Origin: an uncultured virus (IMG/VR IMGVR_UViG_3300033148_006048) | Taxonomy: Duplodnaviria; Heunggongvirae; Uroviricota; Caudoviricetes | DNA: 64,000 nucleotides | Direction: 5' to 3' (one strand) | IMG/VR virus record: IMGVR_UViG_3300033148_006048 | In this document: piece after piece, positions 4,237-57,413 of the stretch | Layout: each line of letters opens with the position of its first letter | Position numbering within the stretch: position 1 is the first letter of the stretch | Position numbers and translations under genes: made by a program | The notes under the pieces: model-generated | What the model was told of the DNA's origin: nothing | What the model saw: only the letters and a program-made list of their open reading frames with translations | Databases searched by the model: none

Positions 4237-5457
4237 TTATCCTTTAATTACAGCTAATGGAGTTAATTCAACTTCAATTTTAACTAAGTCTTTTTGATTT
4301 TCCATTACAACATCAATATCTTTATAAGCAGAACTTGCCTCATCCAAATCTTGTTGATTTCTAATACCATGAATAATTCCTTGCTCGTCTAATTTTCTTT
4401 TTTCTTCTTCGAGATTAAGTTCTTTTCTAGCCTTGCTACGAGACATTCTTCTGCCAGCCCCGTGACTGCAAGAGTTAAAACTATCGGGGTTACCAAGACC
4501 ACGAACAATATAGGACTTGCTTCCCTGTGAGCCAGGTATAATGCCAATAGTATCACTGCTAGCAAGAGTAGCACCCTTACGATGAACCATAACATTTTGA
4601 CCAAAATGATTTTCCATTTTTGCATAGTTATGTGCGATATTAATTATTTCATCAAAATCAATTCCACTAACTCTCTCACCCACTTTTGTTTGACCATCAA
4701 AAGTATCGGCAAATATATTTTGTATTCTTCCCATCATTAATTTTCTATTAGATAAAGCAAAATCAACACAATATTGCATTTCACTTAAATATGCTTGACC
4801 TTCTTTGCTATCTAAGGGCAGGAAAGCTAAATCCCAACTAGGTGGAACTTCACTCTGCCATTTTTTGTTTAACTCCTTAGCCAATTTATTATAATGACTC
4901 GCAACTTTCAATCCGATATTTCTGCTACCGCTATGTATCATAATCCAAATATGCCCATCAGACCCTTTCTGAATTTCAATAAAATGATTACCACCTCCAA
5001 GAGTTCCAATCTGTCTTAATGCTGAGTTAAATTCTTGATTCACAATCATTTCATCTGACTCATCATCAGTCAAGCCATTATTAAACTTACCAATACTTGG
5101 CATTAAGCTTTCATTTTGTTTTTCCTTATGATGACTAAATCCAACAGGTACAGCTTTATGAATCTCGCCCATTATTTTTTTCAATGTATCAACATCTATT
5201 TCAGTCAAAGAAGTCCTAACGGCACACATCCCACAACCAATATCAACACCAACTGCGTTAGGCACGACAACACCTTTAGTAGCCATCACACCTCCAATCG
5301 GCATACCATATCCCTCATGAGCATCCGGCATAATAGCAATATGTTTGAAAGCAAAAGGCAAGTTAGCCAAATTTGAGGCTTGGTCTATTGCCCCGCTTTC
5401 ACAATCATCAAGCCAAAGCTTAATCGGTATTTTATTTTTCGAGATTACTTTTTTCAT
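4237..5457 (-). CDS. rtcB: RtcB RNA ligase
   Basis: MPDAH.G, VGVDIGCG, GTLGGGNHF, IHSGSR, HRKGA, SHGAGR, AYKD motifs all intact. Confidence 0.96.
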   Translation of the reverse strand: MKKVISKNKIPIKLWLDDCESGAIDQASNLANLPFAFKHIAIMPDAHEGYGMPIGGVMATKGVVVPNAVGVDIGCGMCAVRTSLTEIDVDTLKKIMGEIHKAVPVGFSHHKEKQNESLMPSIGKFNNGLTDDESDEMIVNQEFNSALRQIGTLGGGNHFIEIQKGSDGHIWIMIHSGSRNIGLKVASHYNKLAKELNKKWQSEVPPSWDLAFLPLDSKEGQAYLSEMQYCVDFALSNRKLMMGRIQNIFADTFDGQTKVGERVSGIDFDEIINIAHNYAKMENHFGQNVMVHRKGATLASSDTIGIIPGSQGSKSYIVRGLGNPDSFNSCSHGAGRRMSRSKARKELNLEEEKRKLDEQGIIHGIRNQQDLDEASSAYKDIDVVMENQKDLVKIEVELTPLAVIKG

Positions 5458-8449: not shown

Positions 8450-8492
8450 AGTATAAACCCTAATGGCTTTTTTGTCAAAATACTTATCCACA
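8450..8492 (-). promoter_or_regulatory. Sigma70 promoter with an upstream DnaA box
   Basis: TGTGGATAA-5nt-TTGACA-17nt-TATACT-8nt-ATG. Confidence 0.8.
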
Positions 8493-9366: not shown

Positions 9367-10329
9367 TTATAATTTCCAAAATGGTTTATGTTCTTTTTTC
9401 TCTTTTGGTTCTTCTTCTGGCTTCTCTCTTTCATCTTCAACCTGATTTAGTTTACTACAATTATTAATAACATCACACAATTTTTCCATCGCCAATGCTT
9501 CAATCTGTCTAATCCTCTCTCGTGTAACGTCAAATTCTTCGCCAACTTCTTTAAGTGTTTTAGAATAACCATCATTAAGCCCAAACCGCATTATAATAAT
9601 CGCCTTTTGTCTCGGTGTAAGTTGATTAATAAAAGGCATAAGTAAATCCCCAATCGTTATCCGCGTTCTTTTTAGTTGCTTTTCCAAGTTAGTAATTTTT
9701 TCATTTGCTTCTCTAAGTAATTTTGAAGTTTCGTAATAGTTTTTTCTCAGTTTTCCAACCTCTGTTTCGCCTCTAATTTCATTCTCAAGGCAGTTTTTAA
9801 CAACCTCAACTGATAATTTTGTTAAATCTGCCAACTCGTCAATATTTGGCAATCGTCCATTTTGTACTTTATACCTAAACATCTCATTAGCTATTTTAAC
9901 TTTCTTTTCAGCTTCTTCCCATTTAGTTGAACCAGTTAAAAATATCCATCTCTCACGCCGGGTGTGTAAATATTCTTTATGCTCTGGTTTATGTTCCTTA
10001 CAATAAACACTATTCCCGGTAGTAGGTTTACTACAAACCCTACAAAATCTATCCTTAAAACCATAATAATTTTTTGTCCATTCTTTAACATGCTTCCTCC
10101 GACATTCAATCTTGTTACACAGTCTTGTATTTCGCCCTTCAAGTTTATCACCACAGACAATACAAAATCTATCCGGCTTTTTTGGTCTTTTTCTTAAATA
10201 ACATTCCTTTTGTCGTTGCCTTACCACTTTTTGATGTGCGATTTTACATTCCTCCTTATCACACAAAGTCCGACCTTTTCCTAAAATTAAGTCCCCGCAG
10301 TAACGACAATAGTAAAGATTTTTTCCCAT
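9367..10329 (-). CDS. Zn-finger repeat protein fused to sigma70 region 4
   Basis: Three CxxC..C..C units; [31 protein letters not shown]. Confidence 0.8.
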
Positions 10330-12520: not shown

Positions 12521-12563
12521 ATTATAAACTAATTTTACTTAAAAATCAAAATACTTATCCACA
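12521..12563 (-). promoter_or_regulatory. Sigma70-like promoter with an upstream DnaA box
   Basis: TGTGGATAA-5nt-TTGATT-17nt-TATAAT. Confidence 0.7.
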
Positions 12564-14876: not shown

Positions 14877-14905
14877 ATTATAAACCTTTTTGAAAAACTT
14901 GTCAA
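14877..14905 (-). promoter_or_regulatory. Consensus sigma70 promoter heading the early operon
   Basis: TTGACA-17nt-TATAAT, perfect consensus. Confidence 0.85.
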
Positions 14906-15024
14906 AACCCTAAGCCCCTAGAAAACGACCAAAAAACCCCCAAAAAACAAGGTTTTATAGGAGTTAAAAGTTATCCACCATTATTTTATTAAAAAAGTAA
15001 AAAGTTATCCACTACTATAATAGC

Positions 15025-15051
15025 AAAAAACCGCCCCAAAAAAGGACGGCT
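15025..15051 (-). terminator. Intrinsic terminator ending the structural/lysis operon
   Basis: GCCGUCC-loop-GGGGCGGU stem followed by a U-tract. Confidence 0.75.
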
Positions 15052-15082
15052 TTTGCCGGAATCCGTGATTGACACTCGGATA

Positions 15083-15436: not shown

Positions 15437-17449
15437 TTATTTTAAAAATCCGAAAGGGTGCCAGTCAATCTCATACTCATCAAGACTATCAACTGTTACA
15501 AATGGTTTTATCCAACCATCAGTAAGCATTTGTTGATAGCTTTCCCAACCACCAACCCAACGAATTTTATTACTTGTGTTTGATTTGGCAAAAATTTCTG
15601 GTTTGCCTTTCTTTTGAATTGTTTCAATCATATTTTTTATCTTAATATTCTTTTGGTCAATTAGTACCCAAGAGGTATAAACATTCCCACTCTTAAAATA
15701 ATCTTCATTCAAATAACCATAACCTTTGTCACCCCAATTAGTACTCCAAGAGTTAGCAAATTTAATTGCTTTTTTTCCATTTCTCATTAAAGCACCAATC
15801 CCATAAAAAGCGTGTCCCCAATTTAAAGCACCTGGCTCAACATCTGGCTTGTTCCAACCATCGTTTCCACCTTTAGCGGCCATTAATAAAGTTTTATGGT
15901 TTCGTAAGGCAATAGCAACATCGTCAATAGTCTTCGGAACAGAAAAGTATCTTAAACTTTTATACTTCTCTGCCTTACTTCTAAGCTCATCATCAATCTT
16001 TTGCTCTGTCATAAACTTTTCAGTAGGACCATTGTAAACAATTCTTCCATCAGACATCTCAACAGTCGTATAAGACGGTAAATCTTCTTCAAGATTAAAA
16101 CCATACTTAACAGCTATCTTACAAGCCTCTCTAGTATAAGCACCACCGCTAGGTAAATAAATCTGTTCATAGACTCCTTTAGCAGAAAAATCTTTCCATT
16201 TCTTAGTCTCAATAAAGTTTAACAAATCACCTATTGATGAAGTTGCTTGACCAACACAATTATGAACAGCAACAGTCTCAACAATATAACTATTATCTTT
16301 CTCTACTTCTATATTATAAATATGCCCACCAGCATAACTTAAAATTTTATCTATCAAATCAATCTTAATATAAAAATTCTTTTCATCCTCGTAACCATAT
16401 TGACTTTTATATTTTATATCAACTTTACCTAACAATTTTTTTGAGGCATCTCGTCCAAATTGTAACTCATAAACTTGCAACTTGTTTTCTTCTTTTTTTC
16501 GTTTTCTTATAGCAGTTCTAATTCCATTCCTTTTAGCAATATCATTCATTTGTCTAACTAATTCCTTAGAAGTAGTAACCCCAATATAACAATCTTGTTT
16601 ATAACAACCATCACCATCCATCCATCCTCGTAATATATTTAGTTGTTTTTTTGGTTCTAAAGTTAAAAATTTCTTGTGTAATTTTTTGTTAAAACACAAC
16701 TTACTACCATAATCCAAAAATCTTTCTGCCCATATTTTCCCAAGTATACTAACAGTTCTGCTTAAAGTATTTTTCTTGTCACTTATACTTACATTAGTAC
16801 CTAATCCACCAAAAATCTTCTCAAGTCTATTTTGATAATCTACTTCATCTTGATGAATTGAGAAATGAACTCCATAATCACTAACTGAACCCTCGGCCAG
16901 ATAAAATCCAATCGCCCAAAGAAAATTATCATCTAATTCAAATTCATAATCTAGTTTATCTTTTTTTATTTTATTAGTTTTAGGAATAGTCAGATACATA
17001 CCTTTCTGTAATCCTTTCGCTTCAACCCATTCATTATTATCAAGCAAAAAAGGATGTTCTGGAGATACAATTATAGGAAACAACCCATAACCTTTAATTA
17101 CAAACATTGTTCCTTGCCATTTTCGTTTTAATGTGTTATAAACTTTTTTTGGTATTCCATTATGAGTTACAACTCTCTCTCCAATATGTATCTTTTCAAT
17201 ATCTTTATAATTCAAATCTTCCATTAATACTTTAGTTCCTGCTGGAAAACAAGACGATGAACCATTTTGGTTTTCGATTTTAACCTTGGTATTAAATTCT
17301 TTTTCAAAGTCATAACCTTTTTCCCAATCAAAAGGTTTATCAACTCCCATTGCCATAGCTAATGGCGCATACTGTAAATCTCTATCATCAGGCCTGTCAG
17401 GAAAAGCGCCGGGATTAAAATTCTCGTCGAACTTAAATTCTTCTGCCAT
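15437..17449 (-). CDS. Papain-fold (C1-like) cysteine peptidase, possible endolysin, interrupted by an intein
   Basis: QNGSSS|C, WGHA, NSW..WGD.GY motifs; 339 aa after splicing. Confidence 0.85.
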   Translation of the reverse strand: MAEEFKFDENFNPGAFPDRPDDRDLQYAPLAMAMGVDKPFDWEKGYDFEKEFNTKVKIENQNGSSSCFPAGTKVLMEDLNYKDIEKIHIGERVVTHNGIPKKVYNTLKRKWQGTMFVIKGYGLFPIIVSPEHPFLLDNNEWVEAKGLQKGMYLTIPKTNKIKKDKLDYEFELDDNFLWAIGFYLAEGSVSDYGVHFSIHQDEVDYQNRLEKIFGGLGTNVSISDKKNTLSRTVSILGKIWAERFLDYGSKLCFNKKLHKKFLTLEPKKQLNILRGWMDGDGCYKQDCYIGVTTSKELVRQMNDIAKRNGIRTAIRKRKKEENKLQVYELQFGRDASKKLLGKVDIKYKSQYGYEDEKNFYIKIDLIDKILSYAGGHIYNIEVEKDNSYIVETVAVHNCVGQATSSIGDLLNFIETKKWKDFSAKGVYEQIYLPSGGAYTREACKIAVKYGFNLEEDLPSYTTVEMSDGRIVYNGPTEKFMTEQKIDDELRSKAEKYKSLRYFSVPKTIDDVAIALRNHKTLLMAAKGGNDGWNKPDVEPGALNWGHAFYGIGALMRNGKKAIKFANSWSTNWGDKGYGYLNEDYFKSGNVYTSWVLIDQKNIKIKNMIETIQKKGKPEIFAKSNTSNKIRWVGGWESYQQMLTDGWIKPFVTVDSLDEYEIDWHPFGFLK
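16259..17251 (-). mobile_element. 331-aa intein with a LAGLIDADG endonuclease
   Basis: Begins CFPAGT, block B PEHPF, IGFYLAEG and LRGWMDGDG, ends VHN|C. Confidence 0.93.
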
Positions 17450-40744: not shown

Positions 40745-41344
40745 TTTTAATTTTTTTAAATCGTCATCTGTCCAACCCTTCACCGGCCAAAATTTCTTTA
40801 ATACATATGAAAAGCCAAGAAGCTCCCTTTTGCTAATTTTAAATATCTGTCCTAGCGTTGAGTTATGTGAATGCGAAACTGATATGTCTGAAAGATATAA
40901 AAAACTTCTGCCCTTTTTATGCTGATTGAGCTAAACTAATCTTATCTTTGGTTTCCTTAGAATGTTTGTGACCCAAACTTGAACCCGCTGTTGGATTTAT
41001 GTTAAACATATTATCCCACCCAATCTTTTCTTTGTATACATTAATAAATTCTTGTTCTTTTTTTATTAGATTATTCTCTGTACAAAAATATAAAATTCCA
41101 AACTCTAAATTATCTTCACCATGCTTATCCCAAGTATTCTGTAAATAAGCATTATGATGATTACCACATTTTAAAGATTTAACATGCTCTAAAAATCTAC
41201 TTGACAAATCCTTTGCTGAACCAATATATATTTTATTATTTATCAAACTCTTTATATAGTATATCCCAGATTTTTTAACTTTCATCTCCTCTTTTTTTAA
41301 TTTTTTTAAATCGTCATCTGTCCAACCCTTCACCGGCCAAAATT
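40745..41344. repeat. Perfect 50-bp direct repeat (40745-40794 and 41295-41344) flanking a GIY-YIG module
   Basis: Both copies encode FWPVKGWTDDDLKKLK. Confidence 0.9.
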
Positions 41345-42257
41345 GCTCTACAATTTTTGATAAAGGATAGATTTGCTTTCCCCATTTATTCTCCCAGAAT
41401 AAATCTCTAATATATTTCTTTGTTTTTTGTACTACTCTGCCTCTTTGTTCATACGGAAAACTAAAGTCACCACCCTGTGTGCGAAACATATGAGCATACC
41501 AAGTGTCGTAATTAACCAACACTCTGCCACCAGCCAGTCTCGCCTTGGCGGCTACCTCAAGTCCTTGATTCCCCCAACTTCCAGCTTTCTCGTCACAAAG
41601 CTCCCACTCCCAATATTTTTCCCGAGTACTCATAAAACAACTTCCCTGTAAACTCATTGTTTCAGTATAACCATTTTCTTCTAAGCTTTTTTTAAATGCC
41701 GGCCGTTTAGTATAATCGTTGAAATACTGAAAATGCGGTTCAGAATCAAAACAATAAGATTTTGATTGTGGTCGTTCTTTGCCCTTCCAAATCATCTTAC
41801 GCTTTATTTTCTTCGTCTCTCCGCAGTCCGGACATTCTGTTGGTGTTGGACCCTGATATTTTTTCCAACCACATTTATAACATTTCCAGTCAAAAGCCCA
41901 AAGATTCCGCATAACCGGAACTGCCACAACGTCCTCACCAACTTTTTTCATAAAGTCAATCATTTTCCTATCAAATCCTTTGTCAAAGGAGCAATGCGCG
42001 TCAACCTTCATAACATACTTAGCCTTGCTCATTCTAACTGCCATGTTTGCTGTCGCCCGTTGCCCGATTGATTTTGGCACGTAAATTATATTTACCCGTT
42101 CGTTTATTGGAATAGGCGGATTCGCCCATTCCCCATCTAAAACTGCGATAATTTCTGTATCAGCTTCTATATTTTTTAAAATGTCCCCTATCGTCTCACG
42201 CAAGAAAATTTCACAGCGACTCGGTATTACGATACTAAGTTCCATTGTTAATTCCAT
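40917..42257 (-). CDS. GT2 glycosyltransferase fused in frame to a GIY-YIG endonuclease domain
   Basis: SIVIP, DAHC, QGSCF; then GIYYI..N.KIYIGS..R..H and a NUMOD3-like segment. Confidence 0.85.
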   Translation of the reverse strand: MELTMELSIVIPSRCEIFLRETIGDILKNIEADTEIIAVLDGEWANPPIPINERVNIIYVPKSIGQRATANMAVRMSKAKYVMKVDAHCSFDKGFDRKMIDFMKKVGEDVVAVPVMRNLWAFDWKCYKCGWKKYQGPTPTECPDCGETKKIKRKMIWKGKERPQSKSYCFDSEPHFQYFNDYTKRPAFKKSLEENGYTETMSLQGSCFMSTREKYWEWELCDEKAGSWGNQGLEVAAKARLAGGRVLVNYDTWYAHMFRTQGGDFSFPYEQRGRVVQKTKKYIRDLFWENKWGKQIYPLSKIVEQFWPVKGWTDDDLKKLKKEEMKVKKSGIYYIKSLINNKIYIGSAKDLSSRFLEHVKSLKCGNHHNAYLQNTWDKHGEDNLEFGILYFCTENNLIKKEQEFINVYKEKIGWDNMFNINPTAGSSLGHKHSKETKDKISLAQSA

Positions 42258-49480: not shown

Positions 49481-52400
49481 CTAAGGAATGCTGTTTAAGC
49501 ACTTCAAGGCTGTTGCTCTAACAACAGTACCACCGATTCTGTTTACAACTCTACAATTTTGTTATCACAATTTTTTTAATTATTGTTTCACTATATTACT
49601 ATAGTGTTCAGACTATATCATCCCCTGATAAGCAAAAAAGTAATAAACTTTATTGCTTATTACTTCATACATACTTTATTTATTTAATTGCGAATCTATT
49701 GCTTCATTTTCTGTTTAAAATGTTTCTCCCAATATTCTCTATTATGGTTAGCTTTAAGATTACAAGGATTACACAAAGTTAATAGGTTATCCCAATTACA
49801 ATTCTTCTTATCATAATCAATATGGTGGACTGTTAGATAATTTTTTCTTCTTCCTAATCTATCCTTACCTTCTAACTTTAAATCATCATCTGACTTCAAA
49901 CATTCCTGACAAGTATAGTTATCTCTCTCTCTAATCTTTCTTTTCAAACCATTGTTAAATTGAGGACTATAAGGCTCAAATGAACTGCCATTATTCCAAT
50001 ATAGTATGTATGAAGTTGTCAATGTTCAGGAGTGCGGCGCTCGTGGCTATATTATCGCCCCATAAGGACTTATAGCTAGTCGTTGCACCTTCCCAGAAAT
50101 TGCTCTCTGGGCTTGGCTCAGGATTGTCCTTTGCAGGAGTTTCCCTGAATTCACCGCATTTTTAACTATATGTCGCCATATAGTGCCACTAAAGTTAATG
50201 GCTGTCTGGTCTTGCTCGAAAGCTTTTGATTCGTCTTGACTAATCTTAACGGTCATTCGCTTTCGGTCACCAAGATAATAAGCTAGTTTCAAGCAACCAA
50301 AGTAAATCTCGGCTTCTGGTAAGTTATTGTCTTCAATAACTGGATTAGTTATATTATCGCAGAAGCATTTAACTTCTACATCTCATAGTTTCCTATGAGC
50401 TTGGACTATATCATATTGTTTTTTACAAATAAATAAAAGTAACTTTTATGTTACTTCACATATACTTAATTTAATTTATTTTACTAGAATCGCTTTGCTA
50501 TTTTTTTACATAAATCAATAAATTCGTCATGATTTAAAATCCACTTAACACGATTACATACTTCGCAACAAGGAACACAATTTTCTATTGAGTATCCTTT
50601 ACTTGAATCTTTTCTATCAATACCAGAAAATCCATATTTTCCCATTCTACCGCAATAATGACAAGGTTGCTTTGTAATTTCCTCAAATTCATCAATAGTT
50701 AAATTCCAACTGATATTTCTTCTTTTTCTTGTTGCGTCTGCCTTGTAAACAAAATATCTTCCCCTCACTGTCTTCATGTATTCTTTCCGCCATTCTTTAC
50801 ACCTAGCCTTATTTTTTCTGTAATATTCTCTAGTATACTCCTTTTCCTTTTCTCTATTTTTCTGATAATACTTTCTTTTTTCAATTCTACTGCACTCTTT
50901 ACAGTAATAACTAAATCCACTATTTCTTTTACCTTTGCTTCTATAAAAATTATCAGCATTAAGGTCTAATACTTTTTTACATCTTTGACATCTTCTCTTT
51001 CCTTGTTTGATTAGGTTTTCTTTTCTTTGTTTATTATCGTATGACATATAGTTATACACAATTATATCTTATAATATTATTGTATATAATACAACAAGAA
51101 ATGTCAAGTATATGTGTTTATTTGTAAAGAACAATGACGGCGCTCGTGGCTACATTACTGTCCACATAAGGACTCGGTAGCTAGTCTCTGAACCTTCCCA
51201 AAGATTGCTCTCTGGGCTTGGCTGCTGATTGCCCTCGCCTTAAACGTTAGGGTTTTCCAGCAATTCACCGTCTTTTCTATCAATCTCACGACTGATAGGG
51301 GCATCCAGTTTAAATACCCATAAATGGTTGAAGGCTGACCGGGTGATGGACTATCCATCCAAATATATCTGTTATTGCTATCTTTAACTTTTCGAAGTTC
51401 TCTGATGTTATTCTTATGAACAAAGAAAGTACAATCAGGTCTATTTCTATACTTAGAAGGTAGCAAATAAATTAGGTCAATGATGTCATCAAAACCTAAA
51501 TTACCAGCAACAGCTTGACACTGAATACCAAGACCACCTGAAGCGTAACCAGTTGGCTGGCCTACACCAGTACCAACAGTAATTACTCTGTCTTCTTCTA
51601 AACCGATTTCCTCTGCGAATAAACCAATAATGTGCTGTACAATATCAACAGTATCGCAATCTTCAATTAGTTCATCCGTGGCATAAAGACAATTTTGTTA
51701 TCGTAGATTTTTAATTTCTACTTCTCTGCGTTACCGCAGAGTTCAGACTATATCATCCCCTTTTAAAACTCACTTATTTACGCCGATAGCGATATTTTGT
51801 ATAATATAGAAAATATGCTATAATGACTATATAATTATTAACAGTAAAATTATGAACAAAAACAGTCTGAAGAATCTAACTCATCGATTTCAGAAAGGAC
51901 ATAAAACTTGGAATAAAGGTTTAACTAAGGAAACCGATAAACGAATCAAGAAATATGCTGAAGCTAAAATGGGAGAAAATCATCCTTTATGGAAAGGCGG
52001 TAGAGCTAAAGTTACTGGAGGTTACATAAAAATTAAAATGCGAAACCATCCTGATGTTACTAGTGAAGGTTATGTCTTAGAACATCGTCTTGTAATGGAG
52101 AAAAAATTGGGACGGCGATTAAAGCCATTCGAAGAAGTCCATCATAAAAACGGTATAAAAGATGATAACCGACCATCTAATCTAGAACTTGTCATTAAAA
52201 CTAAACATTGCGGTGAAATTAAGTGTCCTTACTGTCAAAAATTATTTAAGATTAAGTGAGTTGTAATGTACGGGGAACGGCGCTCGTGGGTCTATTATAT
52301 TCTCCTGTGCGGAGTTTCAAGACCTAGTCGTTGAACCTTCATCTGCCATTTAGACAGAAGCTTGGCTGCTGATTGTCCTACTCTGTAGGAGTTCCCAGCA

Positions 52401-54837
52401 ATTCACCGTTTTTTTAATTGCATTTTTCAATACAATGCGACTCTTTTTAAGTGCGTTAATCGCGGCACATTTATAGGCAGTTAGAGTATGTTCAGTATAG
52501 GTAGCAGTAGTACAATTTTGTTATCGCAAGGGCTCTTTATCCCTTGCTTCACCAGTTTTATTTATAGCTGGTGTTCAGACTATATCATCCCCAGTAAGCA
52601 AAAAAAGTAGTTTTGCTTACTACTTCATATATACTATATTTTTAGTTGTCTATTCTATTTCAACTTTTTTTCCAATTCCCTAATTCTCTCTTGTAATTTT
52701 ATTTCAAAAGTATGATTCTCGTGATTATGAACATTGAATTCTGAACTCCACCTTTCCATCTACCATTATATTTACCATTCTTTCTTTTACTATTACACTT
52801 ATCATTACAGTAGATTCCTCTACCTCTATTATAATCTCTTGGCAAAATCTCAAAATTTTTACCACAATATAAACATTTCATCACATATCTGAATACCCTC
52901 TTTCCTTTAGGTTTATACCTTTTAACAATTATTCTTTTGTTTATTGAATTACCCATAATTATAAAGTAAATGGACAGATAAATCAAATGAGTTATCCACA
53001 ACAGTCCATCAAGTAGTATATATGAAGTTGTCAATGTTCAGGGGGACGGCGCTCGTGGAGCCATTACTGTCCCATAGGGACTCGGGCTCTAGTCGTTGAA
53101 CCTTCTATCCAGTTGCCTGAATAGCTTGGCTGCTGATTACCCTCGCAAGGGCTTCCCAGCAATTAACCGTCTTTTCTACAAGACTTGAACAAATCTTGTA
53201 GCCATTATTACTAGTGGATTTCGCGGCTCTCTCATCTGTCCAGTACACTCGTGGACCGTCAACTAATCCCGGAATCTTCATCACATCCCGTTTCATAGGG
53301 ATTACGGTAACTCGAGAACGCATGTGTGGCATTTCTTCTAAATCCCGAATAATTTCTGCTCGGAATTCCAATTATGTTATCGTGGTTTTTTTAATTACCA
53401 CTTCTATATGTCTCCATATAGTTCAGACTATATCATCCCCTTACAAGCAAAAAAGTAGCTTTTGCTTGAGCTACTTCATACACGTTAACTAATTTTTTAT
53501 TTTATTTACTCTCTAGTGTTATATTTTTTATGGCACGGAATATCACATAATGTTTTACCATTATCAATATCCCATAACTCTTTACAATTCAATGCTTGTT
53601 CAAAAGTTTCAATCTTGTTTTCAGTCCAGATTTTCGAGAAAGACTTCTTATGATGCGCTACTAATTTCTTTCCTCTGACTCCACAATCTTGACAAGTCCA
53701 ATTATCTCGCTTAAAAACTGCTTTTATCCAGTCACGATACTTCCAACAATGCCTGACCTTTTTAACAAGCGGGGTTCTCCCATCAACATAACTCGGATTT
53801 TTCTTACCTGTCATCTTGCCTCTATGAGCCTCACTCATATGTTCTCTGTATTTCGGCCTTTGCCAAAGCAGTTTAGTCTTGTTATTTTTTCGCTGTTTCT
53901 CTTTAGTCTCTTCTGTATGTTTTTTGCCAAGCATTCCGACTACACCTATTTTATTATACATTCTAGTCTTTTCAGCAGTTCTTTTAAGGCGGTCATCTGT
54001 CTCCTTAGTTAATCCTTTACTCCAAGGAATCTGACCTTTATGACCTAAACTCACTCTTTTTCTTTGTGTTAATGTCATTTTTGAACCTTTTCTCATATAC
54101 CTTAATTATATAGTATACTCAGCAAAAAATCAAGCAATTATTCACACTAGAGCTAACGTGTATGAAGTTGTAATGAACGGGGGTCGGCGCTCTTGGAGAT
54201 ATTATTGTTGGGACTCAATCTCTAGTCGTTGCACCTTCCTGCGAACCTATGCCCTCGCAGGCTTGGCTCAGGATTACCCTCGGCTTTACGTTAGGGCTTC
54301 CCCTGAATTCACCGACTTTTCTTACAATCATTATGACTGTAAGCGACTAATTCCTTAATCGGGAAATAGATATCCACCTTCGGAAGCAGTACCTTCAGAT
54401 AAAGCTTTCAAAGCGGCATGGTCGGCTCGAACCATAGCTTGGAAAAATCCAACAATTTTTTCTTTGACAGTCATTTCTGAAACATCTTTTTTCATCAACT
54501 TTTCAAGGTCGATTAAACTAGTAACTTTCTTTTCTTTAGTCATTGTATCCTTTCTAAGGGATTTAAGGACTTTTTCCTTAATAACTTCTGGGTCTAGCTT
54601 GGCCATAATCTTCTCAGCAACTTCGTCAACTTTTTCGTCTAGTTTTTCTTCTTCCTCTTCCTTTCCTTCACCAGCTTCTTCTTTGCCGGCTTCTTCTTCA
54701 ACTTTTTCTTCCTCTTCTTTTTCCTCTTCTTCCTCAACAGCTTCTTCTTCGTTTTTTTCTTCCTCTTTGTCTACACCTTCTTCCTGTTCCTTTTTAGAGT
54801 AGTAAACTACTCCGTCAGGACCTGTAATTGGGCTCAT
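49481..54837 (-). CDS. HK97-fold major capsid protein, 427 aa, six exons: 54837-54358, 53368-53214, 52512-52459, 51689-51316, 50345-50198, 49553-49481
   Basis: Exons sum to 1284 nt and join in frame ([51 protein letters not shown]); follows the prohead protease. Confidence 0.93.
49554..50197 (-). mobile_element. Group I intron 5 (644 nt)
   Basis: P1 GCCAU/GUGGC, P10, AAUCCUGAGC, GACUA/UAGUC P7, ends AUAACAAAAUUG. Confidence 0.92.
49696..50022 (-). pseudogene. N-terminally truncated HNH endonuclease in intron 5
   Basis: [21 protein letters not shown]; no ATG or promoter, reading frame begins inside the stem arm. Confidence 0.7.
50484..51059 (-). CDS. HNH-type homing endonuclease in intron 4
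   Basis: CHYCG..GIDR.DS.KGY..ENCVPCC..CN..K. Confidence 0.88.
   Translation of the reverse strand: MYNYMSYDNKQRKENLIKQGKRRCQRCKKVLDLNADNFYRSKGKRNSGFSYYCKECSRIEKRKYYQKNREKEKEYTREYYRKNKARCKEWRKEYMKTVRGRYFVYKADATRKRRNISWNLTIDEFEEITKQPCHYCGRMGKYGFSGIDRKDSSKGYSIENCVPCCEVCNRVKWILNHDEFIDLCKKIAKRF
51079..51107 (-). promoter_or_regulatory. Intron-internal promoter for the intron 4 endonuclease
   Basis: TTGACA-17nt-TACAAT. Confidence 0.75.
51690..52458 (-). mobile_element. Group I intron 3 (769 nt)
   Basis: P1 GCGAU/GUCGC, P10 AAAGA/UCUUU, core motifs, ends AUAACAAAAUUG. Confidence 0.92.
51852..52259 (+). CDS. HNH endonuclease encoded antisense within intron 3
   Basis: [35 protein letters not shown] at 51816-51824. 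Confidence 0.9.
52699..52956 (-). pseudogene. C-terminally truncated homing endonuclease in intron 2
   Basis: CLYCG..YC..KC..WKGG, then no HNH core. Confidence 0.65.
52958..53000 (-). promoter_or_regulatory. Intron-internal promoter with an upstream DnaA box
   Basis: TGTGGATAA-5nt-TTGATT-17nt-TATAAT. Confidence 0.7.
53506..54096 (-). CDS. HNH endonuclease with NUMOD3 repeats in intron 1
   Basis: [18 protein letters not shown]; paralogue of 25730-26269. Confidence 0.9.
   Translation of the reverse strand: MRKGSKMTLTQRKRVSLGHKGQIPWSKGLTKETDDRLKRTAEKTRMYNKIGVVGMLGKKHTEETKEKQRKNNKTKLLWQRPKYREHMSEAHRGKMTGKKNPSYVDGRTPLVKKVRHCWKYRDWIKAVFKRDNWTCQDCGVRGKKLVAHHKKSFSKIWTENKIETFEQALNCKELWDIDNGKTLCDIPCHKKYNTRE
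54105..54133 (-). promoter_or_regulatory. Intron-internal promoter for the intron 1 endonuclease (near-leaderless)
   Basis: TTGATT-17nt-TATAAT-8nt-ATG. Confidence 0.7.
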
Positions 54838-54839
54838 GT

Positions 54840-57413
54840 TTATTTTTTCTTCCTGCTAACTTTATTTTTTCTTAGGGTGGCACTTGCATTAGCAACAAGT
54901 ACCTTCAAGACTCTCTGCGCGACCTTGTCAACAACGACATCGCTGGTAACAATTTTGCGGGTGCGTCTTGAGGTTCGACTTTTATCATCGTCACCGCCTT
55001 TCAACCTCTCTGGAGTTTGAACTTTTTTTGGCTCCTTATCTACGTCTGGTTTAGTAGACTCAGTAGCTTCCAAAAGCTTCTCCAGGGCAGTGACGGCTTC
55101 TTTTGACGCCATAACAGCGTCGGTAATTATTCTTTTATTTTTACCTGATATTACTCTGCCTTCTTTTTGGCTCGCATCTATTGCCTTTTCAATCATTCCT
55201 TTTATTGTTTTGGTTCTTTCCTTCTCTTTTTCAATTTCTCCAATTAACTCTCTCTGCTTCTGTAATTTCTTGAGGCTTACAGCCAGTGCCTTATCCATAC
55301 TAATTTCTTCGTTCTTGGCAATCATTACGGCGTAGTCTATGAGTTCCCTGATGTAAGCTCCTGAGAATCCTTTCGTCTTCTCCACGGTATCGTCTAATGT
55401 CTTAGTTTCAATCTTGTCTGTCCATTTTGTAATCATCTCCCTGCGGACACTGCTATTCGGTAGTTCGAAGTTAAGCACATCGTGGAATCTTCCAGGTCGG
55501 TCCAACAGGGCCTTGGGAAGATTCTCTGGAAAATTAGTCGTGAGAATCGTGACTATGCCCTTGTTTTCTCTAATCCCATCCATTTCAATCTTGAGCGTGT
55601 CAATCGCACTACCCCTAAGCCAACTATCGATATCCTCAATAAACAATACTGTCGGAGCTAAATCTCTTGCCAATTTGAACGAGAGCCCCAAGAGAGAACC
55701 GCTAGACATCCTCTCAAAGTCCTTAGAGCTAACCCAAATGAAAGTTGAATCAGCTTCTTTCATTATCACTTTCCCCGAATATGTTTTCCCTGTTCCGGGC
55801 TCACCCATAAACAATAAACCTCTACTTCTCAATTCATCTTTTTCTTTATTTAAGACTTTTATCGATTTCATTATCAATCCCTTAGTTTCTTTCTCAAGAA
55901 TCACATCATCCCAAGTCTTCTCTGACTTAGGCAAAAATTCACCACTAATCGCGAACTTCTCGCCTCTGAGGAAGTTATACTCCCTCACCCACTTATGAAT
56001 ATCTCCCAACAGACTCTTATTAACTTCTTTCTTAGCTGAATTATTGATTATCGTCACATCTAATCCTGACCAAGTGGGACTAAACTTTATGATTAAAGCA
56101 TTCTCACCATTACTCTTGTAGAAATTCATCCCGGCGATAAGGAAATCATCAGACTTCTCGGAGTTGAGTTTGATTACCTCGTACACTGGAGGCACTTCTC
56201 CACCGTCATCAGCAAAACTACGAGTATCAACTAATTCGAATCTATTCATCAACTCCTTAAACCCAGCGAGATAGGTTCCCAATAGTGGGCTAGGAATTAA
56301 GTAATTGTTAAGGAAAACATCCTTAATTTTACAATCAAGAAACTTAGTATAAATCTCATACTCAAAAGTAGCTGGTTTACTCTCAACTTTCTCAATGTCA
56401 AATACTTTAGACAAACTCGGATTCCATCTTTTAGTAACTTGTTCTCCCATTTCACGCCCCTGTCCTGGCCTCTCAACTCGTCTCATTTTACCTCCACACT
56501 TTGGACACTTGATATCTACGCAGTGCTTATCAGAAGTTACCTTATACCTACAATCAAGACATTCACAGCTATAAGTCTGTTTCTCCTCTTCTTTACCAGT
56601 CGCTGGCTCGAACTTTATACCTTTGTGCGCCTTACAATGACTCCTCGCCGAGGATTCAGTCCAGGTATCTTTCGAATAACGATAACCCTGTTCCTCCCAT
56701 TTTGAATGGTCATCTTTTCTGCGACAGGTGAGAATACTGTATTTTTTCCCATCACTTGTCCTACTCGTTCTGCGACAAGTATCATATTTGCCTGGGTCTT
56801 TTAACCTACAAGAATGCTCGTTGGGGTAAGGCTTTTCCACTATTTCTTCTTTTTCTGATGTTTTACATTCTTCCCCTTCACATTTTTTAGTCCAATCCTC
56901 AATATCCTTAATCGTCTTGTCTTCCAATTTGTCGGCCTTCTCAATCCCCTTCTCAACCGTAGTCAACGCCTCGGCATTGGCGGGAACGGCGACGGCTGAA
57001 ACCTCCAACAGCTCGTTAAAGGTCTTGACTTTCTTCTTGCCATCTTTCTCCTCCTCGTCCTCCTCATCTTCGGATTTCGGGATATAACCGACGCTCCACG
57101 CCTTAAGCACTCCTCCAAGATACATCTCCTTTAAGTCTCTCGCTAACTGCGTAAACGTATGGAAAACCGGCTCGAAAACAAGCCGCTTCTGTTTATCTAT
57201 GTGAATATCCTTCGCAACGCCAATAGTATACTGTGGCTTATAATCATGTCCCGCTTGTAGTACAGGATTCTTCTTGAAGTTTTTTAAGTTCCAATCTTCC
57301 GCCTTTAGTGAATCGCCAATTCTGTCTTCTGATTCAGTTGAAGCAATAGCAATCAGCTTTCCGCCTTTTTTTTCGGTATGCGCTTGTACGTGTTTAAGAT
57401 TTTTCTTCGACAT
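54840..57413 (-). CDS. HK97-type prohead protease with inserted domains including an AAA+ ATPase
   Basis: N-terminal NPV...H, WSVGY, LLEVSAV.VPAN; GEPGTGKT, FIEDID, RPGRF; KEGRVIS tail. Confidence 0.88.
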   Translation of the reverse strand: MSKKNLKHVQAHTEKKGGKLIAIASTESEDRIGDSLKAEDWNLKNFKKNPVLQAGHDYKPQYTIGVAKDIHIDKQKRLVFEPVFHTFTQLARDLKEMYLGGVLKAWSVGYIPKSEDEEDEEEKDGKKKVKTFNELLEVSAVAVPANAEALTTVEKGIEKADKLEDKTIKDIEDWTKKCEGEECKTSEKEEIVEKPYPNEHSCRLKDPGKYDTCRRTSRTSDGKKYSILTCRRKDDHSKWEEQGYRYSKDTWTESSARSHCKAHKGIKFEPATGKEEEKQTYSCECLDCRYKVTSDKHCVDIKCPKCGGKMRRVERPGQGREMGEQVTKRWNPSLSKVFDIEKVESKPATFEYEIYTKFLDCKIKDVFLNNYLIPSPLLGTYLAGFKELMNRFELVDTRSFADDGGEVPPVYEVIKLNSEKSDDFLIAGMNFYKSNGENALIIKFSPTWSGLDVTIINNSAKKEVNKSLLGDIHKWVREYNFLRGEKFAISGEFLPKSEKTWDDVILEKETKGLIMKSIKVLNKEKDELRSRGLLFMGEPGTGKTYSGKVIMKEADSTFIWVSSKDFERMSSGSLLGLSFKLARDLAPTVLFIEDIDSWLRGSAIDTLKIEMDGIRENKGIVTILTTNFPENLPKALLDRPGRFHDVLNFELPNSSVRREMITKWTDKIETKTLDDTVEKTKGFSGAYIRELIDYAVMIAKNEEISMDKALAVSLKKLQKQRELIGEIEKEKERTKTIKGMIEKAIDASQKEGRVISGKNKRIITDAVMASKEAVTALEKLLEATESTKPDVDKEPKKVQTPERLKGGDDDKSRTSRRTRKIVTSDVVVDKVAQRVLKVLVANASATLRKNKVSRKKK

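Follow-up and report, generated by a model that had tools for sequence, protein, structure and literature searches.

We analysed a 64,000-nucleotide (nt) stretch of DNA from an uncultured virus of the Caudoviricetes (IMG/VR record IMGVR_UViG_3300033148_006048), which is called the window below. Its subject is an RNA element in the group I introns of the major capsid gene, consisting of three helices, named here stem A, hairpin B and hairpin C, that cannot all coexist. A first-pass annotation had proposed that this element is a conditional terminator enclosing the intron-encoded endonuclease genes. The minus strand is the strand of all genes in the window, and the introns, stems, hairpins and promoter-like sites of the module are all found on it. 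The capsid gene is organized as follows:

54837-49481, minus strand: HK97-type major capsid gene, six exons and five group I introns
54837-54358, 53368-53214, 52512-52459, 51689-51316, 50339 (or 50345)-50198 and 49553-49481, minus strand: capsid exons
54357-53369, minus strand: intron 1, 989 nt, group I, Rfam RF00028 48.8 bits
53213-52513, minus strand: intron 2, 701 nt, group I, core matching Rfam RF00028 with 43.4 bits, 5′ splice site after a C
52458-51690, minus strand: intron 3, 769 nt, group I, Rfam RF00028 59.8 bits
51315-50340, minus strand: intron 4, 976 nt, group I, Rfam RF00028 66.3 bits
50197-49554, minus strand: intron 5, 644 nt, group I, Rfam RF00028 59.3 bits

Exon 4 matches Pfam PF05065 (1e-20), and the spliced capsid frame is open over 425 amino acids (aa). 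Aligned with the intron-less relatives L269 and L270, this frame is free of gaps over four of the five junctions (1, 2, 3 and 5), and a 2-aa gap appears at junction 4 if the nearest G is taken as the intron end. A related 5-kb contig, G002 (also locus L267; 74-87% nucleotide identity), has exons 1-2 and 3-4 fused exactly at the predicted joins. Introns 1 and 3 are missing there at precisely these positions, and intron 2 is the only one kept. The RF00028 bit scores refer to the 5′ cores of the introns, the 3′ pieces having been found separately. Three of the five introns reach the gathering score of 50 bits; introns 1 (E 1.8e-10) and 2 (E 7.7e-9) stay below it because an open reading frame (ORF) splits P8. 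The J8/7-P7 motif was found five times in the window, compared with 0.04 expected occurrences. Past the P7 5′ strand the introns carry an insertion of 31-37 nt, which resembles P7.1/P7.2 of subgroup IA. A U.G pair is present at the 5′ splice site in four of five introns, the exception, as read from the sequence, being intron 2 with a C opposite an A. A terminal G ends the intron in four of five cases; in intron 4 an A (50346) stands at the homologous position, 6 nt ahead of the next G.

Two splice sites deserve comment. In intron 2, where the junction was set by comparison with homologues, homology to the other four introns identifies an internal hairpin at about 53204-53179 as P2, which leaves the small hairpin CCAC/UA-GUAA-UAAUGG near 53220-53205 as P1. 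The exon join obtained in this way gives KSTTTATY, in agreement with intron-less capsids, and the G002 orthologue has the same C/A arrangement. A 5′ splice site after ...AAGAU, with P2 read as P1, was ruled out by the other introns and by the intron-less capsids. In intron 4, the position 13 nt past GAUAA, where the other four introns have their terminal G, is occupied by the A at 50346. An exon start at 50345 is favoured by a 6-bp P10 (AUCCAG/CUGGAU) and by the YGYPVIE of the homologues, and use of the next G (50340) as the end gives a capsid that is 2 aa shorter. Intron 4 would have either an unusual 3′ end or a shifted splice site.

The intron ORFs are located between P3′ (GAGCGCCG...) and J8/7 in the Rfam alignments, which corresponds to the P8 loop:

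54096-53506, minus strand: intron 1 ORF, HNH/NUMOD3 endonuclease (Pfam NUMOD3; PHROG HNH endonuclease 1.8e-7)
53034-52699 and beyond, minus strand: intron 2 ORF, decayed endonuclease
51852-52259, plus strand (antisense): intron 3 ORF, HNH (Pfam HNH_3 6.6e-11)
about 51047-50484, minus strand: intron 4 ORF, endonuclease VII-like (PHROG endonuclease VII 4.8e-27)
50022-49696, minus strand: intron 5 ORF, short HNH (Pfam HNH 3e-5), with a TTG as sole start and no ATG

The ORF of intron 3 is antisense to the capsid gene, and those of introns 1, 2, 4 and 5 are sense. Since the sense ORFs come from different nuclease families, their flanks act as a common scaffold. Two of the four sense genes (introns 2 and 5) look decayed. 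Relative to its G002 orthologue, intron 2 is short of about 190 nt of ORF sequence, and a further 7 nt are gone from the stretch that separates the -10 hexamer from the ATG; the TTG start of intron 5 sits inside stem A. The endonuclease ATG follows 1-9 nt past the -10 hexamer of the promoter-like sites listed below, and the leader in the related locus L281 has 26 nt; leaderless endonuclease mRNAs were considered from this short distance. In the intron 1 ORF, a Shine-Dalgarno-like AAAGG precedes a second ATG.

Stem A is an extended P8 that closes the nuclease ORF. The 3′ arm of this stem is followed by hairpin B and a U-run in four introns, and by the alternative hairpin C in three:

54168-54154 / 53487-53473, minus strand: intron 1 stem A, 15-bp duplex, -20.3 kcal/mol, pairing probability about 1 in the complete P8 domain
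53028-53014 / 52636-52622, minus strand: intron 2 stem A, duplex -17.4 kcal/mol
52261-52253 / 51776-51768, minus strand: intron 3 stem A, 9 bp
51116-51106 / 50467-50457, minus strand: intron 4 stem A, 11 bp
50016-50003 / 49675-49662, minus strand: intron 5 stem A, duplex -18.0 kcal/mol
53476-53453, minus strand: intron 1 hairpin B, -8.3 kcal/mol, U-run 53452-53447
52626-52604, minus strand: intron 2 hairpin B, followed by a run of 9 U, U-run 52603-52597
50457-50436, minus strand: intron 4 hairpin B, about -5 to -7 kcal/mol, followed by a U-rich run
49665-49638, minus strand: intron 5 hairpin B, -9.4 kcal/mol, U-run 49637-49632
53468-53444, minus strand: intron 1 hairpin C, -8.4 kcal/mol
52620-52594, minus strand: intron 2 hairpin C
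49660-49628, minus strand: intron 5 hairpin C, -11.1 kcal/mol
51128-51117, minus strand: intron 4 P8 5′ strand, pairing with the U-rich P8 3′ strand 50433-50422

The stem A duplexes of introns 1, 2 and 5 comprise 14-15 bp with energies of -17.4 to -20.3 kcal/mol. Hairpin B stands directly after the stem A 3′ arm in introns 1, 2, 4 and 5. It is AU-rich (-4.8 to -9.4 kcal/mol), with stems of 7-11 bp that contain 2-3 G-C pairs. The U-run has 6-9 U in introns 1, 2 and 5, if the last Us of the stem are counted, and reads UUUUAUUUAUUU in intron 4; together, hairpin and U-run are located 25-40 nt past the ORF stop. The overlap of stem A with hairpin B amounts to 4-5 bases in introns 1, 2 and 5 and in G002, so that the GAAGU of the A 3′ arm is the bottom of B; in intron 1, the last four bases of the arm are the first four of the hairpin. 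In hairpin C (-6.5 to -11.1 kcal/mol) the loop of B pairs with the U-run, which excludes B. An H-type pseudoknot of B with C was ruled out, as no linker bases remain between the strands. The native P8 fold is predicted to be a three-way junction formed by a short base (CCCC/GGGG), stem A and hairpin C.

These observations bear out the architecture described in the first-pass annotation, which had listed long stems closing the endonuclease ORFs (the arm coordinates match in introns 1, 2 and 5), a local hairpin with a U-tract formed from the stem 3′ arm in introns 1, 2, 4 and 5, a third pairing that buries the U-tract in introns 1, 2 and 5 (our hairpin C), and an intron 3 without the hairpin. 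By inspection of its sequence, intron 3 has stem A but no B, C or U-run. B and a U-run are thus found behind all four sense ORFs and are missing from the sole intron with an antisense ORF. A window-wide scan gave 11 sites of a hairpin followed by a U-run on the coding strand of the 64 kb, four of which are the B sites of the capsid introns. From these pairings and from the folding predictions, the element appears to be a three-state RNA switch in the P8 arm of the paralogous introns 1, 2 and 5, of which intron 4 would be a simpler relative.

The influence of the stem A 5′ arm on hairpin B was assessed by partition-function folding of the nascent RNA up to the 3′ end of B, with the U-run treated as still in the polymerase. 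The same RNA was folded with the 5′ arm free or forced to be unpaired, and truncated RNAs were folded in addition. The pairing probability of the bottom pair of B was as follows:

intron 1: 0.08 with the arm free, 0.68 with the arm forced unpaired
intron 2: 0.01 with the arm free, 0.68 with the arm forced unpaired
intron 2 orthologue of G002: 0.02 with the arm free, 0.98 with the arm forced unpaired
intron 5: 0.09 with the arm free, 0.69 with the arm forced unpaired

Removal of the arm by truncation gave values of 0.66-0.98 in these four sequences. Capture of GAAGU by stem A therefore shifts the predicted occupancy of B 8- to 50-fold. In intron 2 and G002 the whole of B is lost in the presence of the arm (≤0.11). 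In the complete P8 domain, A and C are both close to 1 and B is at 0.00 in all four sequences. If the arm is taken away from this domain, B rises to at least 0.85 in three of four (intron 1, G002 and intron 5), and C wins in intron 2. The expectation that folding with and without the 5′ arm would differ was thus confirmed for introns 1, 2 and 5 and for G002, where the bottom pair drops to 0.01-0.09; intron 4 is unaffected. The 3′ arm of hairpin C is the U-run itself, which is inside the polymerase at the time of the decision, and C is for this reason not an antiterminator. Judged from the sequence layout, C would be a lock that closes after the decision, and A alone could antiterminate. A role of C as antiterminator, which the earlier description of the module would have allowed, is dropped, as C forms after the release point.

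Comparison of intron 2 with its G002 orthologue (86-87% identical) revealed an exact compensatory change from A-U to G-C in stem A and another from G-C to A-U in hairpin C. A change from U to C turns the bottom G.U of hairpin B into G-C. Among the five sequences of B, two positions have changed on both sides (G-C/A-U and C-G/U-A) with Watson-Crick pairing kept and no pair disrupted. The outer pair of C has also changed on both sides, being C-G in intron 1 and U-A elsewhere. Pairs were tallied by hand because a MAFFT alignment of the five modules was not in structural register. The earlier suggestion that the stem arms covary between introns holds for A, which has a compensatory change in the G002 orthologue, and extends to B and C. 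This covariation supports all three helices, including two that cannot coexist. As G.U pairs occur in the helices, the structures are specific to RNA of the coding strand. For each of the four modules, 1000 dinucleotide shuffles yielded no case of two mutually exclusive perfect hairpins (each ≤ -6 kcal/mol, within 34-40 nt). Since the modules are homologous to one another, this result counts as one observation and not as four. In folding energy, the module of intron 1 alone is no better than its shuffles (z = -1.02), and that of intron 5 has a z of -4.45. On the strength of the pairings, their mutual exclusivity, the covariation and the thermodynamic effect of the arm, all of which the alignments and folding models bring out directly, we regard the bistable RNA element as real.

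Promoter-like sites were found in the P8 loops of three introns:

54133-54105, minus strand: intron 1, TTGATT-17-TATAAT, 10/12 matches, 21 nt downstream of the A 5′ arm, ATG 9 nt past the -10
52986-52958, minus strand: intron 2, TTGATT-17-TATAAT, 10/12 matches, with the motif GTGGATAAC upstream (52999-52991)
51107-51079, minus strand: intron 4, TTGACA-17-TACAAT, 11/12 matches, overlapping the last two bases of the A 5′ arm

The G002 orthologue and an intron of L281 have kept both hexamers and the spacing of the intron 2 site. According to the first-pass annotation, the promoters of introns 1, 2 and 4 begin downstream of the 5′ arm. For these predicted sites the placement is correct in introns 1 and 2, and in intron 4 the site overlaps the end of the arm. 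The activity and timing of the three sites are inferred. The phage uses host-type transcription signals. It has a canonical G+C-rich terminator at 15056-15022 (minus strand; -19 kcal/mol, z = -4.25), behind it a perfect TTGACA-17-TATAAT at 14905, and a motif GTGGATAA upstream of the -35 at 8478, at 12549 and in intron 2 (7 matches, 2.05 expected). It also encodes a sigma-70-family factor:

9370-10329, minus strand: phage sigma-70-family gene

The presence of this gene suggests that the late genes are transcribed by the host core enzyme, an enzyme that responds to intrinsic terminators and would recognise such hairpins. A free-standing 115-aa ORF at 12519-12172 (minus strand), which matches a PHROG HNH endonuclease (1.8e-21), has the same TTGATT-17-TATAAT-T-ATG layout upstream as the intron 2 ORF. 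No hairpin with a U-run was found downstream of it.

These elements can be joined into the following mechanism. Early in infection, host RNA polymerase would initiate within the P8 loop, at sigma-70-type promoters that lie past the A 5′ arm. The resulting endonuclease-only RNA would lack this arm, which would leave the GAAGU at the end of the A 3′ arm free to pair with ACUU. Hairpin B would then be completed against the run of 6-9 U and act as a weak intrinsic terminator, stopping the endonuclease transcript before the capsid exons are reached. The late capsid pre-mRNA, in contrast, would start upstream and carry the 5′ arm, which is proposed to be one half of an antiterminator and to be present in capsid pre-mRNA only. 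As soon as the 3′ arm emerges, the 14-15-bp stem A would form and take the bottom pairs of B beside the U-run. The polymerase would read through, and the U-run would then pair back onto the B loop as hairpin C, locking the junction for splicing. Termination at B, promoter activity and timing, and antitermination kinetics over about 330 (intron 5) to 670 (intron 1) nt are the parts of this mechanism that we infer. The reading as a conditional terminator is plausible for introns 1, 2 and 5, for which we hold it tentatively, as somewhat short of probable, and it is not plausible for intron 4. Somewhat less likely again is the full design, in which the P8 helix of the ribozyme would double as a long-range antiterminator, internal starts would give terminated endonuclease mRNA, upstream starts would give read-through, splice-competent pre-mRNA, and the U-run would be recycled for C.

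A number of observations weigh against a conditional terminator. Hairpin B is weak and AU-rich. In a classical hairpin-plus-tail score, the B copies reach -1.9 (intron 1), -5.8 (intron 2), -12.1 (intron 4), -2.9 (intron 5) and +3.9 (G002), compared with +30.1 for the canonical terminator of the phage, and a built-in terminator scan passes the hairpin of intron 1 alone. In introns 1 and 5 the 5′ arm weakens just the bottom 2-4 pairs of B, the upper pairs remaining at 0.85-0.99. The arm has to reach its partner from 330-680 nt upstream, it is partly paired locally in the nascent RNA (the first 5-7 bases are 0.02-0.28 unpaired in intron 2 and G002), and long-range pairing of A that is fast enough, within about a second, is assumed. 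Intron 4 does not follow the scheme: A and B overlap by 1 base, B is predicted at 0.65-0.97 whether the 5′ arm is present or not, and according to the predictions A, B and P8 form side by side. Its U-run makes up the 3′ strand of a 12-bp P8 segment, where it is buried by the P8 5′ strand and not by a C hairpin. The promoter scan found no recognisable promoter in intron 5, although B is strongest there. Promoter-like matches are not enriched in the window as a whole (26, compared with 21.3 ± 4.4 in shuffles), and the nuclease gene of intron 2 is decayed. The covariation comprises very few independent events from one phage lineage. Among relatives, the orthologues of intron 1 in L281 and L282 (nuclease 58% identical) lead from the ORF straight into J8/7 with no A, B or C. 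In L281, the intron near the intron 2 site includes the promoter-like site and stem A and lacks B, C and a U-run. With a looser 17-nt motif (at least 125 stretches), 67 sites had enough upstream DNA; a P8 ORF was present at five of these, and none of the five had a hairpin with a U-run. Since relatives have the intron or the nuclease without the module, it is not required for this intron type, and it appears to be dispensable and specific to this lineage. The original claim that endonuclease-only transcripts terminate and capsid pre-mRNA reads through is accordingly retained in part: the folding of introns 1, 2, 5 and G002 is in its favour, and intron 4, the weak hairpins and the relatives without the module are not.

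Three other explanations have to be considered. Hairpin B and the U-run might be a plain, unconditional weak terminator or a 3′-end stabiliser, which the pre-mRNA passes because of its weakness or with the help of a phage factor, while the overlap with A and hairpin C just tuck a U-rich insert into the native fold. The low scores of B relative to the canonical terminator would fit this, as would the phage's own sigma factor, the inability of C to act before the termination decision, and intron 4, which has B and a U-run without competition between A and B and uses the U-run as P8 3′ strand. The flanks GCAAAA/UUUUGC of introns 1 and 2, which also occur in the terminator at 15056-15022, fit descent from an ordinary terminator. 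We nevertheless consider this explanation rather unlikely, since the shared GAAGU comprises exactly those pairs of B that lie beside the U-run, so that capture by A shifts occupancy 8- to 50-fold, and since three paralogues and one orthologue have all preserved the arrangement, with all three helices covarying. Moreover, a series of four such sites would carry a cost in the late gene with the highest expression if nothing masked them. The B hairpins are not the stable, usually G+C-rich stem-loops of intrinsic terminators; a U-run directly after the stem is present.

The same helices might serve the ribozyme and have no role in transcription at all. B would form first and then give way to the junction of A and C, which could time or chaperone the closure of P8 or hold the RNA until the ORF region is transcribed. 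A and C are strongly predicted as the final fold and carry compensatory changes, the U-run of intron 4 is a P8 strand, intron 5 keeps the module without a promoter, and the hairpins are weak by terminator standards. On the other hand, the module is missing in intron 3 and in the ORF-bearing introns of L281 and L282, which presumably fold and splice too. A hairpin with 6-9 U that stands 25-40 nt past a stop codon is the textbook layout of a terminator, and four of the 11 such coding-strand sites in the 64 kb window are those of the capsid introns. A folding device is therefore possible but on the unlikely side. Quite improbable is a functionless insert of recent date, carried between introns 1, 2 and 5 by recombination of near-identical scaffolds, its pairings being a by-product of A-rich and U-rich sequence. 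The confinement of the module to this phage and one close relative in the scanned collections would agree with such an insert, as would the intron 1 module, which is no better than shuffles (z = -1.02), and the different P8 context of the intron 1 nuclease orthologues in L281 and L282, which points to an exchange of flanks. However, the bistability was matched by 0 of 1000 shuffles per module, the paralogue stems differ in sequence yet stay paired, and the orthologue has exact compensatory changes.

The distribution of the module was examined with a 20-nt J8/7-P7 motif, which gave 5 loci in 2 viral contigs, 8 metagenome loci and 5 genome loci. Carriers of the module in the viral, metagenome and genome collections are a near-twin of the phage and the 5-kb contig G002; one viral contig is also in the metagenome set. 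The other matches are short-P8 introns, several of them in Patescibacteria genome bins. G001, the nearest record, has no match to the J8/7 motif. A pattern of GAAGUA plus J8/7 gave 110 distinct matches, all of which are unrelated introns on reading. Of 12 loci with capsid relatives, 10 were scanned with Rfam and gave no group I match at E ≤ 0.01. Among 32 loci with endonuclease relatives, 17 were scanned, and an Rfam group I match was obtained in L281 alone; the intron of L282 was recognised by eye. The proposed design occurs in one uncultured phage lineage and is supported by folding predictions and a few compensatory changes.

The intron content of the capsid gene varies: the window has five introns, G002 has intron 2 and neither 1 nor 3, L281 has at least three and L282 has intron 1 alone, and ten other related capsid loci (L269-L278) have no introns by Rfam. 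The L281 intron near the intron 2 site is inserted a few codons upstream of the position used in the window. The short-P8 group I introns with the exact 20-nt J8/7-P7 motif in several Patescibacteria (candidate phyla radiation, CPR) bins are loci L248-L260, and these matches are a possible clue to the host range of this intron family.

A homing-endonuclease gene that resides in an intron of an essential, highly expressed gene has to be expressed in a way that does the host gene no harm. The closest known cases are the intron ORFs of phage T4, for whose expression the study of Gott et al. from 1988 is said to be the primary paper. Classical attenuation, as in the trp leader, T-box RNAs and riboswitches, relies on exclusive helices, in which an antiterminator that shares the 5′ bases of the terminator is transcribed first and the decision falls on the U-run. 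The present element likewise has exclusive helices, the upstream one of which shares bases with the 5′ arm of the candidate terminator. In classical attenuation, the competing strand is tens of nt away, whereas here it lies about 330 (intron 5) to 670 (intron 1) nt upstream, across a whole ORF. The input there is a ligand, a tRNA or a ribosome, and here it would be the promoter that made the RNA. Particular to the element described here are a proposed antiterminator that is a structural helix of the ribozyme and a third helix, C, that re-uses the U-run. We propose that it represents attenuation by alternative hairpins with a long-range competitor, promoter choice as its input and a ribozyme helix as candidate antiterminator.

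According to the accessible text of two reviews of the T4 genes, the intron ORFs I-TevI (td), I-TevII (nrdD) and I-TevIII (nrdB) have their own middle or late promoters, their ribosome-binding sites are hidden by hairpins in the pre-mRNA, and I-TevI is subject to autorepression (PMC2988022, PMC3073962). As far as these texts go, the T4 introns resemble those of the window in having a nuclease gene in a peripheral loop, an own promoter and an RNA structure that tells pre-mRNA from endonuclease mRNA. They differ in that control is exerted on translation, by sequestering of the ribosome-binding site, and by promoter repression. A terminator masked by an intron helix is not described in the accessible parts of PMC3073962, where the word terminator occurs 0 times, or of PMC2988022, where terminators concern free-standing genes only. 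The free-standing T4 genes mobE and segF contain internal intrinsic terminators, the one in mobE stopping about 30% of transcripts (PMC2988022). Like the B sites, these are weak intrinsic terminators tied to homing-endonuclease genes in an essential operon. Unlike the B sites, as far as that text covers them, they are in the 5′ part of the coding region and unconditional, the downstream gene being rescued by a separate promoter. In the available text of a 2025 paper on Bastillevirinae introns the word terminator is not used, and in that of a phage long-read transcriptome paper intron ends are given as excision products only. No intron-internal conditional terminator was found in full-text literature searches, with subscription journals and supplements outside their range.

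If the masked terminator is true, it would be a transcriptional solution beside the known translational and promoter-based ones, and a case of attenuation in which the origin of the transcript, and not a metabolite or a ribosome, is the input. A ribozyme helix would then have a second, regulatory role. The module of about 35-40 nt together with a 15-nt upstream arm would be a compact promoter-dependent terminator part, if it works. If it does not function as a terminator, it would still be a natural bistable RNA with covariation for both states.

Some further observations concern the transcription signals and gene content of the window. The operator-like motif GTGGATAAC occurs twice between the terminator at 15056-15022 and the promoter at 14905. 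It is also found directly upstream of the -35 of the promoter-like sites 8478 (8473-8491), 12549 (12544-12562) and intron 2 (52981-52999), and a phage regulator may bind to it. GCAAAA ... UUUUGC flanks are common to the canonical terminator (15022-15056) and the modules of introns 1 (53447-53465) and 2 (52598-52616), and intron 1 shares as much as GCAAAAGC and UUUUUUGCU with this terminator. Three matches to these flanks were found in the window, compared with 0.68 expected (3 of 100 shuffles equal this number). An ordinary terminator whose A- and U-tracts are paired may be the ancestor of the intron modules. By Pfam, other genes on the minus strand include an intein protein (Hint and LAGLIDADG), an RtcB RNA ligase, the sigma-70-family factor and a fusion of a glycosyltransferase with a GIY-YIG nuclease domain. 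Coordinates for this Pfam gene content include:

15440-17449, 4240-5457, 9370-10329, 40920-42257 and 54843-57413, minus strand: genes with Pfam matches

Just upstream of the capsid gene, an 857-aa fusion of a prohead protease with an AAA+ ATPase is encoded.

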